Assembly: GCA_965223545.1 (NCBI GenBank)
Contig: OZ245006.1
Span: 1,664,001 to 1,728,000, forward strand
DNA length: 64,000 nucleotides
Reading direction: 5' to 3'
From: Planctomycetota bacterium
GTDB lineage: Bacteria; Planctomycetota; UBA1135; UBA2386
The translations under genes were made by a program, and so were the position numbers. Positions 6,058-54,298 of this stretch are shown here, in pieces (the first letter of the stretch is position 1; each line of letters begins with the position of its first letter). Under the pieces are notes generated by a model. The model was not told where the DNA came from. It did not search any database and was given only the letters and a program-made list of their open reading frames with translations.

Positions 6058-6142
6058 GCGAGACGTACGGAGTCAGGCTCGATTTTCTCGCTTGGCGGCT
6101 GCCGCCAAGCGAGAAAATCGAGCCTGACTCCGTACGTCTCGC
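6058..6142. repeat. REP-like doublet: perfect 42-bp inverted repeat with 1-nt loop
   Basis: GCGAGACGTACGGAGTCAGGCTCGATTTTCTCGCTTGGCGGC-T-reverse complement, between convergent genes. Confidence 0.95.
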
Positions 6143-32292: not shown

Positions 32293-35003
32293 TCAGTAAC
32301 GGGTCACCGCGGTGCGCAACGGGTTGGTGAAGCGAGCGGCCGACGGAGTCGCCGCCGGCGCGACCAACGCCTGCCAGAAGAAATCGGCGCCGACCAGAGC
32401 AGCCGTGTTGGGCACGGTGAACGACCACACCACTGTGCCCGTCGTCGCCACCGGCATTGAGCAACTCAGCGTCGCCGGTCCGAGCGACAGCCAACCGAGC
32501 GATCCGATGCGCGCCGCCGGCGAGAGCGCGGTCGTGCTGGCGCAGAGCGCGGCCAGGATGCTCCCTCCGGCGGCACCCGGGTCGCCCGTGACCTCGATCT
32601 GCCACGGCCGACCGAGCCCCATGAGATACGGCGCGCGCAACGCCCGCGCCCGGTTGGCGAACACACGCAGTCCGCCGCCGACGTACTCGAGTGCATCGGC
32701 ATCGCCGTCTCGATCGACGTCGGCGAGAACGAGTCGCTTGGTGACCGTTGCGGGCTGTCCGAAGAACACTCGCTGGTAGCTGGCGGGAAACAAGGGCGAC
32801 GACAACGAAAACACGCCGTTGCCATCGTTCAACAGGACCTGCTCGACGCCCATGTTGTCGACCACGATCACATCGAGGTCGCCGTCGGAATCCAGGTCGT
32901 CGGCTTCGATCTGCTGCTGGTAGGCCGGCCACAAGGGCATCCGCGCCGCCGTCGCGTCGAAGAACATGCCATCGCCCGGGTTCTCCAAGAACATCGCACC
33001 GGGCGTCGCGTTGAGCCTCCGGCGCCTCAAATCTTCGAGCTTCGACAACATTTTCGAGGCGACGCCGCTGCCATGGCAACGGCGCCGCGGCGCCGGAGGC
33101 TCGGAGAGACAGTGCCTCTGGGCTCAGCGCGGCGGCGGATGTGTTGGACCTTCCAAGCCGCTCCGGCAAGAGCGGCATCCGAGTTGGTTGCGGCGGTGGC
33201 CGCGCTGAGCCTCGCGGCGGTCATGATGTCGAGGTCGCCGTCGCCATCGAAGTCCGCGATCTCCAGGTCGGTGCCGTGGAACGGGGCGTTCTGCATGATC
33301 ATCGTGAAGACGCCGGCCCCGTCGTTGCGAAACACCTCCATGCGCGAGCCCCGGGCGTGGACGGTATCCAGGTCGCCATCGCCGTCGAAGTCGAGCACTC
33401 CGAACGCGTCGATCTCGGAGGACGAGTTCGGGTAGGTCGAGCTGCAGGTGAAGCCACCGGCGCCGTCGTTGACGAGGAGATCGAGCGCGTAGCGGCCCGG
33501 ATACAGACCCGGATTCGTCTGCCGGCACATCAACACGTCCACCGCTGCGTTGCCGGCGAGATCTCCCGCCGCCAGCGTGATCGCCATGCCGCGCGGGTAT
33601 CCCGCCCGCTGGGTGAAACCGGCGCGGCCGTCGTTCAGGAACACACGCAGCTCGCTGTAGTGGCCATCGAGGAGATCCCCGTCGCCGTCGCCATCGACGT
33701 CGGCGATCAGGATCGCACCGGACTGCCCCGGACTGGCAATCGGCGGCAGGTGTCGGAAGCTGCCGAAACCGCTGTTCAAGAACAGCTCGGGCTCACCGCC
33801 GGCGAACGAGATGCTGTCGTTGGCGACGACGACGTCGTCGAGGCCGTCGCCATCGAGATCGCCGACCGCCCAGTCGACGAACGCCATCGCCGGCCGAGGA
33901 AACGGACCCGCAGAACCGTCGCGCCACTGCAGCCCGCCCTCGTTGAACAAGATCCTCCACGGCGCGCCGAACTCGACGAAGTCGAGATCGCCATCTGCGT
34001 CGGCGTCGAACGCCTGCGGCGCGGCGGAGTCGATCCAGGGCGGCATCGACGCCGGGGCCCGGGTGAACTGCGCCGCACCGTCGTTGAGCCACACCTCCGG
34101 CCCACCGGCGTCGAGCACGAGATCGACATCGCCATCGCCATCACAATCCGCCGCCAGGCTGCGCGCGACGCCGGCGCTGCCGACCGCCCCGGCGAACGAC
34201 CACCGAAAGCCGGCACTGTGAAGCAATAGCGAGTTCCCGGTCCTGCCGGTTGCCAGCCAGTCCAGATCGCCGTCGCTGTCGAAGTCGGCGTATGCGTCCG
34301 TCGGCGCCACCGACAGCGAGGAGGCGAGGGAGAACACACCCCCACCCGTGTTCTCCAACCAGACCGAGTTGACGTAGGCCCCGCTGGTGGAGCAAAGGAC
34401 ATCGGGGTCGCCATCGCCATCGGCGTCCACCGCGAGAGTGATCCCATTGACCGACGTCGCGGCAGTGGACCCGAGCGAGAACAGACCGGTGCCATCGTTG
34501 AGCAGGGTCTGGAGAGTGCCGGCAGGAGCTACACAGAGCAGGTCGGTGTCACCATCGCCGTCGACGTCTGCCGGAACCGGAGCGGAGCACAGCGTCAGGC
34601 CTGGGGCGAGGCTCGCGGCGGTGACGTCCGTGAAGTTGCCGGACCCGTCGTTGGCAAAGAGACTGCTCGACACGATCAGGTCGAGGTTTCCGTCCCCGTT
34701 GAGGTCGGCCAACCGCGGAGTCGTCCGGAACTGCTGCTGTGGGCCGATCGTCCCGTCGAGGATGAAGCGCCCGTGGCCGAGATTGCGGACGCGGTGCGCG
34801 GTGTCCAGAAACATCGCGATCAGGTCGCGATCGCCATCGCCGTCGATGTCGCCGTGAGCGAAGCCACCGAAGGTGCCGCCCGAAGGCAGGTGGGCATACA
34901 TCCGCTCGACAAAGCCGGGCTGGCAGGGCACCGCGGCAGCGAGCGACCACGCAGCGAGGAAAGCCACTGCAACAGCTTGGCAACGGTGGGGGCAACCGTG
35001 CAT
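32293..35003 (-). pseudogene. Secreted FG-GAP repeat protein split by a 194-bp insertion
   Basis: Two ORFs (35003-33027 and 33051-32293) both carry D.DGDGD.D repeats; deleting 33020-33213 gives the in-frame ...DLDIMTAARLNATPGAMFLENPGDG... Confidence 0.85.
33012..33213. mobile_element. Small gene-less structured insertion (194-bp unit) bounded by a TGAGCCTC direct repeat
   Basis: Direct repeat at 33012-33019 and 33206-33213; perfect internal inverted repeats 33013-33026/33089-33102 (14 bp) and 33121-33133/33199-33211 (13 bp). Confidence 0.75.
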
Positions 35004-35219
35004 TTCGAACGACTCGGGTGAGGCGAGGCCGTGGACGAACAGCGCGAGAATCGACGCCTTCCCCGACCCCGGCAGGGGATTCGCACAGCTTACTTGAACT
35101 CGGTGGCCGCGAGGAAGAGGCCCCCCATGCCGGGCGCCTTCCGCGATCGCCAAGCTCAGGCTAAGATCGACGACATGGCGTGGGCCGAAGACCCGAGCCG
35201 TCGCCCTTTGGAGAGTTTC

Positions 35220-50902: not shown

Positions 50903-50954
50903 ACGCGCCCTGTCCGGAGCCCGGAAGTTGAACGTACGGAGCCTGACCTGAAAC

Positions 50955-52337
50955 TCACCCAGCCTCGGCGATCGGTATGAGCTTGTACCCGAGGGATTTA
51001 GCGTTCTGTCGGAGTCCGACGATGCGTCGCTGGGTGAAGCGCTCCTCGTAGGCCTTGGCGCCTTCGTCTACGTAGTCCTGGCCGAACTTCAGCATGCGGT
51101 AGATGAGCAGGGCCAGTTTGCGGGCGATGGCAAAGATGGCGACGTTGCCGTCCTTCGCGCGGGCGATCTTGCGGAAGTGTGCGCCGAGAGCTGTCTGAGT
51201 ACGTTGGAGGGACAGGGCGGCCATCCGGAGGACCGTGGCGATCCTGCTGACCGCGATGTTGTTGCGGTGCTTCTTGATGCGCTTTCCACCCGAGACGGCT
51301 TGACGTGGGCACAGGCGTAGCCAGGAGACGAAGTGCTTCTCGGTCGGGAAAGCTTCGAGGTCGTAGCCGACCTCGGTGAGCACGATCATGGCCGTGCTCG
51401 GGCTGATACCGTCGATTCGCGTGAGATCACACCCGACGAGCCGGCAGAGGGCATCGCGAAGCTCCCGGCCGCCCTTCGTTCGGATGCTCCTCTCCTTGCG
51501 GGGGTCTGGATGCTCGGGGACGTCGGCCGTCTTGGCTTCCTCCGGTTGCAGGTCCTCGATCATCGCCATCAATCGCTTCTCGACCGACTCGATCTCGTGG
51601 TCGGTGTGCTCGAGCATCCGCAAGCCCGAAGCGAGAGTGAAGATGTGCTCCTCGATCCAGGTCCCTTGCAAGTGATCCGCGAGCTCCTTCTCGGAGATCT
51701 TGCAGCGCGGATCACGCAGTCTGGCGAGCGCTCGAGGGTCGCGTTCACCAGCGAGAATCGCGCGGATGATCGCGAGGCCGGTCTTGCCGGTGATGTCCGT
51801 TACCGCGCGATGGATCGCCACGTTCATCTGATCCAGTGACCGCTGCATCAACTGCGTGTGGCGCGTGCGCTGCGCGATCAAAGACGCGGCATGGCGTTGC
51901 AGGGTCCGCAACGCACAGATGTCCTTCGGAGGCCGGAACGAAGCGCGAATGAGGCCATAGGTGTGTAGCTTCTGCAGCCAACTGCAATCGCTGGCATCGG
52001 ACTTGGAGCGGCCCGGCACGTTCTTCACCTCGCGGGCATTCGCGAGGATGACCTCGAAGCCTCTCGACTCGAGTAGCTCGTAGACGGGAATCCAGTAGAC
52101 ATAGGTGCTCTCCATCGCGACGGATCGCACTCCGAGCTCCTCCAGCCAGTCCGCGAGCGCCTCTAGCTGGGGCGTCGTCGTTCCGAATCGCTTGATCGGA
52201 CGACTGCCGTCGGGTGCTGCTGCGCACACCCAGTGCTCGCGGCTGCCGATGTCGATTCCGGCGGCGTTGGGCTTCACGACTGGCAATACTTCCGCTGCGG
52301 GCTTCTTGCCCTTCCTCGTTCTGCTCTTCCCAGCCAT
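50955..52337 (-). CDS. IS110-family DEDD transposase/recombinase
   Basis: GIDIG, AMEST, KSDASD (RuvC-like DEDD); LTRIDGI, SWLRLCP...SGG, AIARKLA. Confidence 0.95.
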   Translation of the reverse strand: MAGKSRTRKGKKPAAEVLPVVKPNAAGIDIGSREHWVCAAAPDGSRPIKRFGTTTPQLEALADWLEELGVRSVAMESTYVYWIPVYELLESRGFEVILANAREVKNVPGRSKSDASDCSWLQKLHTYGLIRASFRPPKDICALRTLQRHAASLIAQRTRHTQLMQRSLDQMNVAIHRAVTDITGKTGLAIIRAILAGERDPRALARLRDPRCKISEKELADHLQGTWIEEHIFTLASGLRMLEHTDHEIESVEKRLMAMIEDLQPEEAKTADVPEHPDPRKERSIRTKGGRELRDALCRLVGCDLTRIDGISPSTAMIVLTEVGYDLEAFPTEKHFVSWLRLCPRQAVSGGKRIKKHRNNIAVSRIATVLRMAALSLQRTQTALGAHFRKIARAKDGNVAIFAIARKLALLIYRMLKFGQDYVDEGAKAYEERFTQRRIVGLRQNAKSLGYKLIPIAEAG

Positions 52338-52339
52338 AC

Positions 52340-52587
52340 TTCATCCTCATTGTTGTGGTGGGCCCGGCCCGAGGCGGCGATCAAACGAATCTGACCTGCG
52401 GGAGTGGGCACGGCGACGTGCCCCTCACCAGTGAAGGATGGCCAACTCGGACCCAGACTGGCTCTGGGGCAAACGTGCTCCAGTGGCTATTGGGGGCGTA
52501 GCTGCCGGGCCCCTCACACGTTCCCCTCCCCCTTCCTCAGCGGCTAGTTTCCTGCCCTGAAGGGCCGACAAATCTGCCGGGGCAGGA
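52340..52587 (-). ncRNA. Putative bridge RNA in the IS110 non-coding end (copy 1)
   Basis: ~250-nt non-coding end upstream of the transposase with matches to the target half-sites (52458-52464, 52477-52481) and the donor junction (52391-52398). RNA boundaries unknown. Confidence 0.65.
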
Positions 52588-52589
52588 CT

Positions 52590-52634
52590 GGCTCCGATTC
52601 ATCACCCGGCGGTGCCGGGTGATGAATCGGAGCC
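52590..52634. repeat. Central part of the REP-like doublet trapped between the two IS copies
   Basis: GGCTCCGATTCATCACCCGGC-GGT-GCCGGGTGATGAATCGGAGCC perfect hairpin; outer arms at 50927-50943 and 54282-54298. Confidence 0.9.
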
Positions 52635-52645
52635 TGACCTGAAAC

Positions 52646-54028
52646 TCACCCAGCCTCGACGATCGGTATGAGCTTGTACCCGAGGGATTTAGCGTTCTGT
52701 CGGAGTCCGACGATGCGTCGCTGGGTGAAGCGCTCCTCGTAGGCCTTGGCGCCTTCGTCTACGTAGTCCTGGCCGAACTTCAGCATGCGGTAGATGAGCA
52801 GGGCCAGTTTGCGGGCGATGGCAAAGATGGCGACGTTGCCGTCCTTCGCGCGGGCGATCTTGCGGAAGTGTGCGCCGAGAGCTGTCTGAGTACGTTGGAG
52901 GGACAGGGCGGCCATCCGGAGGACCGTGGCGATCCTGCTGACCGCGATGTTGTTGCGGTGCTTCTTGATGCGCTTTCCACCCGAGACGGCTTGACGTGGG
53001 CACAGGCGTAGCCAGGAGACGAAGTGCTTCTCGGTCGGGAAAGCATCGAGGTCGTAGCCGACCTCGGTGAGCACGATCATGGCCGTGCTCGGGCTGATAC
53101 CGTCGATTCGCGTGAGATCACACCCGACGAGCCGGCAGAGGGCATCGCGAAGCTCCCGGCCGCCCTTCGTTCGGATGCTCCTCTCCTTGCGGGGGTCTGG
53201 ATGCTCGGGGACGTCGGCCGTCTTGGCTTCCTCCGGTTGCAGGTCCTCGATCATCGCCATCAATCGCTTCTCGACCGACTCGATCTCGTGGTCGGTGTGC
53301 TCGAGCATCCGCAAGCCCGAAGCGAGAGTGAAGATGTGCTCCTCGATCCAGGTCCCTTGCAAGTGATCCGCGAGCTCCTTCTCGGAGATCTTGCAGCGCG
53401 GATCACGCAGTCTGGCGAGCGCTCGAGGGTCGCGTTCACCAGCGAGAATCGCGCGGATGATCGCGAGGCCGGTCTTGCCGGTGATGTCCGTTACCGCGCG
53501 ATGGATCGCCACGTTCATCTGATCCAGTGACCGCTGCATCAACTGCGTGTGGCGCGTGCGCTGCGCGATCAAAGACGCGGCATGGCGTTGCAGGGTCCGC
53601 AACGCACAGATGTCCTTCGGAGGCCGGAACGAAGCGCGAATGAGGCCATAGGTGTGTAGCTTCTGCAGCCAACTGCAATCGCTGGCATCGGACTTGGAGC
53701 GGCCCGGCACGTTCTTCACCTCGCGGGCATTCGCGAGGATGACCTCGAAGCCTCTCGACTCGAGTAGCTCGTAGACGGGAATCCAGTAGACATAGGTGCT
53801 CTCCATCGCGACGGATCGCACTCCGAGCTCCTCCAGCCAGTCCGCGAGCGCCTCTAGTTGGGGCGTCGTCGTTCCGAATCGCTTGATCGGACGACTGCCG
53901 TCGGGTGCTGCTGCGCACACCCAGTGCTCGCGGCTGCCGATGTCGATTCCGGCGGCGTTGGGCTTCACGACTGGTAATACTTCCGCTGCGGGCTTCTTGC
54001 CCTTCCTCGTTCTGCCCTTCCGAGCCAT
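52646..54028 (-). CDS. IS110-family DEDD transposase/recombinase
   Basis: 460 aa; differs from copy 1 at 4 residues seen (G3R, S5G, LEAF/LDAF, PIAE/PIVE). Confidence 0.95.
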   Translation of the reverse strand: MARKGRTRKGKKPAAEVLPVVKPNAAGIDIGSREHWVCAAAPDGSRPIKRFGTTTPQLEALADWLEELGVRSVAMESTYVYWIPVYELLESRGFEVILANAREVKNVPGRSKSDASDCSWLQKLHTYGLIRASFRPPKDICALRTLQRHAASLIAQRTRHTQLMQRSLDQMNVAIHRAVTDITGKTGLAIIRAILAGERDPRALARLRDPRCKISEKELADHLQGTWIEEHIFTLASGLRMLEHTDHEIESVEKRLMAMIEDLQPEEAKTADVPEHPDPRKERSIRTKGGRELRDALCRLVGCDLTRIDGISPSTAMIVLTEVGYDLDAFPTEKHFVSWLRLCPRQAVSGGKRIKKHRNNIAVSRIATVLRMAALSLQRTQTALGAHFRKIARAKDGNVAIFAIARKLALLIYRMLKFGQDYVDEGAKAYEERFTQRRIVGLRQNAKSLGYKLIPIVEAG

Positions 54029-54030
54029 AC

Positions 54031-54279
54031 TTCATCCTCCTTGTTGTGGTGGGCCCGGCCCGAGGCGGCGATCAAACGAATCTGACCTGCGGGAGTGGGC
54101 ACGGCGACGTGCCCCTCACCAGTGAAGGATGGCCAACTCGGACCCAGACTGGCTCTGGGGCAAACGTGCTCCAGTGGCTATTGGGGGCGTAGCTGCCGGG
54201 CCCCTCACACGTTCCCCGCCCCCTTCCTCAGCGGCTAGTTTCCTGCCCTGAAGGGCCGACAAAATCTGTCGGGGCAGGA
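54031..54279 (-). ncRNA. Putative bridge RNA in the IS110 non-coding end (copy 2)
   Basis: Same guide-like segments as copy 1. Confidence 0.65.
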
Positions 54280-54298
54280 CTGGCTCCGTACGTTCAAC

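Follow-up and report, generated by a model that had tools for sequence, protein, structure and literature searches.

The repeats closest to the one considered here are the REP/BIME-2 and REPIN sequences that go with TnpA-REP (RAYT) (PMC3333891, PMC8266576, PMC3116915, PMC6006769) and the gene-less PATEs of the IS200 type (PMC10055086). TnpA-REP is reported to cleave at C|T inside the complement of a guide, GTAG; BIME circles can be excised, and a model with a single-stranded BIME circle has been presented (PMC3333891). A change of the guide from GTAG to GTGG shifts the cut to CC (PMC8266576), TAM and TEM covary with the guide in IS200/IS605 and in PATEs (PMC10055086), and IS110 insertion in REPs has been described (PMC12288879). 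Comparable in other ways are bcr1 of the Bacillus cereus group, a dispersed repeat of ~155 bp with two independent stem-loops, compensatory changes and a TTTAT direct repeat, whose mover is given as unknown (PMC3184786, PMC6542083); the mycobacterial MIRUs, which lie in tandem between genes, at stop and start codons, and have repeats of 4 bp at their ends (PMC3184786, PMC12548453); and the REP-like hairpins of class 3 TnpA-Y1, a class reported from Planctomycetes (PMC6006769). It is still an open question how REP-like and bcr1-like repeats spread, and whether gene-less elements choose targets with a DNA guide of their own, since the ends of REPs are ragged and guides seldom vary in nature.

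Here we describe a family of gene-less, two-armed mobile repeats, one copy of which lies in the window, the 64,000-nucleotide stretch of a Planctomycetota genome (G000) that was analysed. The family is real and previously undescribed; no description of it was found in the non-subscription literature. It offers sharp ends, lineages with differing end motifs and natural guide swaps, and hence a direct prediction, namely that a change of guide should change the target, with the cut expected at TGA|G. It is the largest repeat family of G000, a landing site for two IS110s, and able to break genes.

Like REP/BIME sequences, the element is high in copy number and extragenic (123 units in 83 arrays, with 3 of 57 arrays in coding sequence), forms tandem and mosaic arrays and is targeted by IS110s. 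Unlike them, it has precise unit ends at a fixed 4-mer, and its arms of 60-90 nt, against 20-40 nt for REPs, do not fit the 20-65-nt hairpin by which REPs are recognised; its hairpin foot is CGAG, GGAG, GGGG or GGAT by lineage rather than GT(A/G)G, no REPtron was found, and its arrays begin and end in mid-junction. With PATEs (PMC10055086) it has in common the absence of genes, a target motif outside on the left, an element-encoded motif on the right without duplication, and covariation of guide and target. It differs from PATEs in that its guide pairs linearly, extending a long hairpin, whereas PATEs cross-pair from a short subterminal palindrome; reading seems to extend to a base 3' of the cut, tandem arrays occur, replichore bias is lacking, and no matching autonomous tnpA-bearing IS was found. 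From bcr1 it is set apart by sequence and phylum, by common arrays and by an end repeat that is not a duplication in one relative (G017), and from MIRUs by its larger size, a much stronger two-arm fold and, in G000, a position mostly after stops with no coupling to starts. It has GCCGC(A/G)ACC in common with the class 3 hairpins, but their CnGA foot is not conserved in it, and viral class-3 arrays are short direct repeats without long arms. The element works like REP/BIME and PATEs yet belongs to neither, having no GT(A/G)G foot, no shared IS ends, no replication bias and no REPtron that could be found. An initial sequence-only reading had stated that it matches no class; that statement is unsupported, because its logic is common to REP/BIME and IS200-type PATEs.

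An insert in an FG-GAP repeat gene

A host FG-GAP repeat gene on the minus strand is split and frameshifted by a 194-bp insert lying antisense to it (Table 1). Just as the sequence-only reading proposed, taking out the 194 bp restores a single frame, of 888 aa, and 70 paralogous FG-GAP matches align across the restored join. The unit is 93.5% identical to the nearest other copies, and the family consensus is 195 bp long.

Table 1. Features of the inserted unit and its host gene (window coordinates)
Feature	Position	Strand	Basis or remark
Host FG-GAP repeat gene	32293..35153	-	Interrupted and frameshifted; insert antisense
Left 4-mer TGAG	33012..33015	+	Left versus junction/right asymmetry in G017; deviation pattern in G000
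194-bp mobile unit, type A	33015..33208	+	Boundary for a cut after TGA; 33016-33209 if after TGAG
Left-arm stem, 5' strand, across left junction	33013..33026	+	Folding, compensatory changes
Left-arm stem, 3' strand	33089..33102	+	Folding, compensatory changes
Proposed DNA guide CTCG (CGAG on minus strand), complementary to left 4-mer	33100..33103	+	Putative function
Central spacer with small hairpin	33103..33122	+	GCC-N4-GGC at 33114-33123 covaries
Right-arm stem, 5' strand	33123..33133	+	Pairs with right 4-mer in G000/G009 lineage only
Family-wide right-end motif GGTTGCGGCCnnGGCCGCG	33186..33205	+	Holds target of 11-copy IS110
Right-arm stem, 3' strand, ending in right 4-mer TGAG (33206-33209)	33199..33209	+	

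Public contigs cross both junctions, from runs X1 and X2 on the left and X2 on the right, and X5, from a separate study, also crosses the right junction, so the insert is no misassembly; neither an empty site nor a circle junction was seen among the 15 of 97 joints listed. A local template switch or a misassembly would explain self-complementarity only, and in the face of these contigs, from two runs and a second study, and of 123 full copies in the genome, either is extremely improbable.

Both of the long perfect stems that had been pointed out are present, one of 14 bp formed by the two left-arm strands of Table 1 and one of 13 bp pairing 33121-33133 with 33199-33211. The strong self-folding claimed for the insert also holds, its fold being better than those of 200 of 200 shuffles on both strands (z of -6.4 for the minus strand and -4.7 for the plus). 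A suggested preference for the minus (mRNA) strand is not family-wide: folded as DNA, the minus strand is the better in 47 of 123 units. The terminal T-G wobble is on the plus strand, at a G that our search pattern favours.

A dispersed family of two-armed repeats

The insert is no one-off. BLAST against G000 gave 190 matches in 129 clusters, a pattern search recovered 123 full units, which group into 83 arrays (56 of one unit, 17 of two, 9 of three and one of six), and a profile search returned 231 matches, among which left ends number 158, right ends 145 and tandem junctions 53. Units are mostly 195 or 201 bp long; identical ones stand at unlinked loci, and left arms, centres and right arms combine among them as mosaics. 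When 15 units were aligned, 7 of the 23 consensus pairs proved to have changes on both sides, so that the fold is kept by compensatory changes, and the ends pair with the centre and not with each other, leaving no terminal inverted repeats, in agreement with the proposal of a non-autonomous element lacking them. Classification as a MITE was rejected for this reason and for the rejection of a duplication in G017, described below. A structure-only search of G000 yielded no second family with two-armed anatomy, and the genes between nearby copies are ordinary host genes only. Orientation is unbiased between the replichores (59 versus 69, p=0.43). We note that most unit lengths (195 and 201 bp) are divisible by three, that almost every copy has two open frames on the plus strand, and that a predicted gene contains the copy at C1 6633579 in frame.

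By the calls of a home-made gene caller, coding sequence accommodates the three paired arrays given above, against 77% of all TGAG sites, and 21 of the 57 lie directly after a TGA stop codon. This placement, after stops and outside genes, suggests survival by selection, and the window copy is a rare gene-breaking insertion. The same distribution bears on the idea of an element that acts at the RNA level, spliced out or reverse-transcribed from a structured circular RNA. Such an element would agree with the strong RNA fold, with the group II intron copies present in G000, and with a left hairpin that crosses the junction as does the P1 helix of a group I intron. We nevertheless hold it to be very unlikely given the depletion from coding sequence, a window copy that is antisense and breaks its gene, the lack of an apparent ribozyme core and a DNA fold without strand preference; the best Rfam score of the insert, 17.9 bits, is not near the threshold of 82. 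A known structured RNA or self-splicing intron was rejected on the Rfam score and on the single sense in-frame copy found in coding sequence among the 57 arrays, and removal at the RNA level, which the earlier reading had allowed for, is likewise unsupported.

Two-armed elements akin to it are present in roughly a dozen genomes of the same family, with 34-72 motif copies in four of them. The G000-type centre was found in 2 of 339 class genomes and, in a metagenome scan, on 2 short contigs, where no mobile gene was found. A covariance model matched 11 of 91 family genomes; 19 matches were inspected, with a partial match in G322 left out. Those in G017, G018, G274, G278, G280, G307 and G317 have the same two arms with unrelated left-stem sequences, a short A/C-rich spacer and the common right-end motif; two-armed anatomy was not seen in the match in G288. 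The right-end motif, GGTTGCGGCCnnGGCCGCG in the window, counts 113 copies in G000, 72 in G301, 65 in G017, 55 in G303, 34 in G018 and 11 in G305, with 0-2 matches for reversed-pattern controls, and was not found in viral contigs; it is a probable protein-binding site. Only in the G000/G009 lineage does the centre pair with the right 4-mer, so that the complementarity of the centre to the right end, which had been remarked on in the sequence-only reading, stands for that lineage and is missing in the relatives. The copies of G303 and G301 have nearest-neighbour identities of 0.91 and 0.96, where other genomes have 0.92-0.98, and these values do not clearly indicate a loss of the enzyme in the two genomes. 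In G009, a two-unit array (L002:1429-1810) lies at an overlapping stop/start codon, as do MIRUs, and its 188-bp unit, read by eye, is an open frame that starts at this ATG and runs for ~63 codons until a TGA follows, also as in MIRUs.

End motifs and a proposed internal guide

The family end motif is the 4-mer TGAG, and in G000 the ends are sharp, with near-random flanks beyond. Outer right flanks continue with at least 4 junction bases in 2 of 81 cases, where ~1.1 are expected; one of the two is the window copy, whose 8-bp terminal repeat, as it had been described, is therefore a local match. The clearest view of the ends comes from G017, in which 37 units were parsed from fetched loci, out of 105 motif matches. 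Here 20 of the 23 arrays have TGAG on the left, against 2 of 18 tandem junctions and none of 19 outer right ends (p=8e-11), the junctions and right ends being mostly TAGG. The right 4-mer is thus part of the element, the left one part of the target, and the end repeat in G017 is not a target duplication. We infer that in the window, too, the first three or more bases of the left TGAG are host target rather than element. In G000, 12 of 48 paired arrays have a deviant 4-mer, in no case in the same form at both ends, and left-end deviations concentrate at positions 1-3. The fourth base varies more at right ends (18 of 182) than at left ends (8 of 212; p ~0.02), for which reason the cut would most likely fall after TGA (TGA|G; minus-strand reading C|TCA); in the relatives alone this asymmetry is not significant (p=0.12), and the positional gradient could also come from erosion of old ends.

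Other genomes are less simple. Single copies with identical 4-mers at both ends are in excess in G303 (8 of 16, against 4.1 when shuffled; p=0.01) and in G301 (15 of 26, against 12.0; p=0.03), which a strict no-duplication model does not predict, and copies in G009 have 8-12 bp in common at both ends. The PATE-like arrangement of a target motif on the left and an element motif on the right, without duplication, is found in G017 and G018, and is weakened by the excess in G301 and G303. These excesses and the G009 copies would be expected of a MITE-, MIRU- or bcr1-like element with a 4-bp target duplication, whose ends came to differ by later mutation or gene conversion and whose "guide" is a mere internal stem; TGAG stands at both ends of most G000 arrays, and direct repeats of 5 bp for bcr1 and 4 bp for MIRUs are described (PMC3184786). 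The right ends of G017, which are of the tandem-junction type, speak against this reading, as do the ends of G018, identical no more often than when shuffled, and the lack of terminal inverted repeats, and we judge it unlikely.

The 3' strand of the left hairpin continues beyond the stem, pairing with the left 4-mer. This putative guide reads CTC in G000 and G017, and its fourth base and composition vary among relatives, which have CTCC, CCCC or ATCC against CTCG here. In G017, where the guide is CTC, 21 of 23 left 4-mers have GA at positions 2-3; in G301 and G303 together, with a CCC guide read by eye, 38 of 50 have GG there and 1 of 50 has GA. Within G018 alone, position 3 is A in 7 of 7 units with a CTC guide and in 5 of 15 with a CCC guide (p=0.005), and the single CGC-guide unit has C at this position. 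Of the ATC-guide units of G280 and G317, 4 were parsed, and all 4 show TGAT or CGAT as the left 4-mer, with a fourth base that may be element-derived. These counts are evidence for covariation of guide and target of the kind by which PATEs are recognised, with a switch across genomes that rests on few independent lineages. The element appears, from these sequence comparisons, to carry a short internal DNA guide that chooses its landing site. As in REP/BIME, the probable C|T cut would lie inside the complement of the hairpin-foot tetranucleotide (GGAG in G017 and G018, on the minus strand), a GG-type guide goes with a CC site, and the end statistics are compatible with C|TCA and C|CCA cleavage.

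A guide had been foreseen by the sequence-only reading in a longer form, with the centre pairing with the host flanks. A short guide at the left 4-mer does seem to be carried; the longer pairing, beyond the 4-mer, was not found (with tandem neighbours left out, p=0.45 and p=0.20). An initial signal of extended pairing of guide and flank was due to partial tandem neighbours and disappeared on filtering, and an excess of junction-like left flanks over all TGAG sites fell to 7 of 77 against 6.2% with a non-coding background.

With precise ends, dispersal to unrelated sites, tandem arrays, mosaic halves, the two-arm fold, the absence of duplication in G017 and the match of the target 4-mer to the bases at the left hairpin's foot established, we favour, with moderate confidence, the view that these are non-autonomous DNAs of 140-200 bp that move as folded single-stranded DNA and are mobilised by an HUH enzyme. 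A Y1 enzyme resembling TnpA or RAYT would act in trans, binding the conserved right-end motif, and would cut one strand at both ends, most likely at TGA|G (C|TCA on the minus strand, as does TnpA-REP). The ends would then be joined into a circle, which would insert where target bases 2 and 3 pair with the internal guide, and repeated or rolling insertion would build the tandem arrays; copies would persist mainly right after TGA stop codons and between genes. The head-to-tail arrays are what a circular or rolling intermediate predicts, and to that extent the earlier suggestion of a folded circle holds, its RNA variant apart. Against this explanation count the failure to find a cognate enzyme, the lack of replichore bias, the excess of identical ends in G303 and G301, and the want of an empty site or circle junction among the joints listed.

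Candidate mobilising enzymes and other mobile DNA

Two Y1 types are encoded in G000, and a profile search detected no third. Both were rejected as the mover: the 232-aa type, in 12 copies, has arrays of its own, is present in 105 of the 339 genomes of the class and gave no match in G018, G301 or G303, and the ~330-aa RAYT type, in 22 of 91 genomes, does not co-occur with the element and is tied, in its two G000 copies, to a different repeat. No match to PF01797 or NF047646 was obtained in G301 (72 motif copies, 85% complete) or in G303 (55 motif copies, 88% complete, 6 contigs). REPs can outlast their enzyme. The one physical hint of a mover comes from G018, where a unit lies 3 bp before the ATG of the sole Y1 gene; no REPtron-like link of element and Y1 was found in G000, G009 or G317, and no similarity to the element in the flanks of 33 Y1 loci. 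The right-end motif stands beside a Y1 gene in 2 of the 33 loci, both of which look like insertions, and no shared mobile-enzyme gene emerged among 715 neighbouring frames.

Enzymes of other kinds did not fit either. IS91/Y2 is broken in G000, has unrelated ends and was not found in G301; the DEDD transposase of IS110 was not found in G301, G305, G009 or G307; and the integron integrase, present in 42 of 91 family genomes (enrichment p=0.13), was not found in G000, G009 or G317. For class-3 Y1, motif searches of G000 were blank, 74 viral loci with class-3 REPs showed no such protein next to them, and across the 91 family genomes canonical class-3 REPs are no more frequent than expected by chance. 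We note that class-3-type REP hairpins form densely packed direct arrays on viral contigs L468, L488 and L497, where a Y1 gene was looked for within 1.5 kb and not found.

The same element and guide could be served by another single-strand recombinase, either a host or integron-type tyrosine recombinase that acts on the folded arms or an HUH enzyme missed by PF01797 and NF047646, such as a class 3 Y1. That no Y1 was found in G301 and G303 would fit, as would an integron integrase that passes the cut-off in 9 of the 13 genomes with the element, G301 and G303 among them, and the nonamer that the right-end motif has in common with class-3 REP consensus sequences (PMC6006769); if the 4-mer is inherited in a mixed fashion, a heteroduplex core would agree with it. 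The integrase is nevertheless common anyway, and was not found in three of the element-bearing genomes as given above; the element's ends are not at an attC-type GTT, and no protein with the class-3 motif was found in G000. Overall we consider this a serious but doubtful possibility. An integron attC cassette proper (RYYYAAC...GTTRRRY, with a G|TT crossover) was rejected, the boundaries not being at GTT and no integrase in G000 being over the cut-off. A further suggestion, rather unlikely, is that these gene-less single-stranded DNA elements form a class apart and guide themselves, their target reprogrammed through changes in a Watson-Crick guide at the hairpin foot and their enzyme outside the known Y1/RAYT families and possibly host-encoded. 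Such an enzyme would account for the 55-72 copies in genomes without a detectable Y1, and a mover other than a known Y1 protein would add a compact DNA-guided system of single-strand recombination.

Two IS110 families insert into the element, one in the right-end motif in 10 of 11 copies and the other at the centre, beside the spacer of type-B copies, in 4 of 4. The IS110 of the window, which has 23 copies in the genome, targets another palindrome, and a link to it through the resemblance of its target to the insertion site, to which attention had been drawn, is unsupported. An IS110-derived MITE or bridge-RNA module was rejected, since the element's ends differ from those of all three IS110 families and two of these target the element instead. 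Two tandem copies of the window IS110, encoding 461 aa, occupy 50934-54291 in a palindromic repeat of the GTACGGAGC type that is unrelated to the element. The units at C1 537270 and 611310 of G000 have a 5-bp extra at the IS110 target; these are probably footprints of imprecise IS110 excision.

A second repeat family of ~34 bp has 93 segments genome-wide, with window members at 6065, 6135, 19615, 24091, 42503 and 63663, and its repeats flank a ~330-aa RAYT gene beside a gene for a XerD-like integrase just past the window. At 12 loci on C1 (e.g. L025 and L023) near-identical genes for the 232-aa Y1 each follow variable mosaic hairpin arrays, which group II introns (~2032 bp) invade; its homologs in the class often have numerous copies, a state unusual for RAYT-like genes. 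In G018, G303 and G305 (L366, L368, L370 and L374), IS91-type Y2 genes lie directly downstream of a tyrosine recombinase gene.
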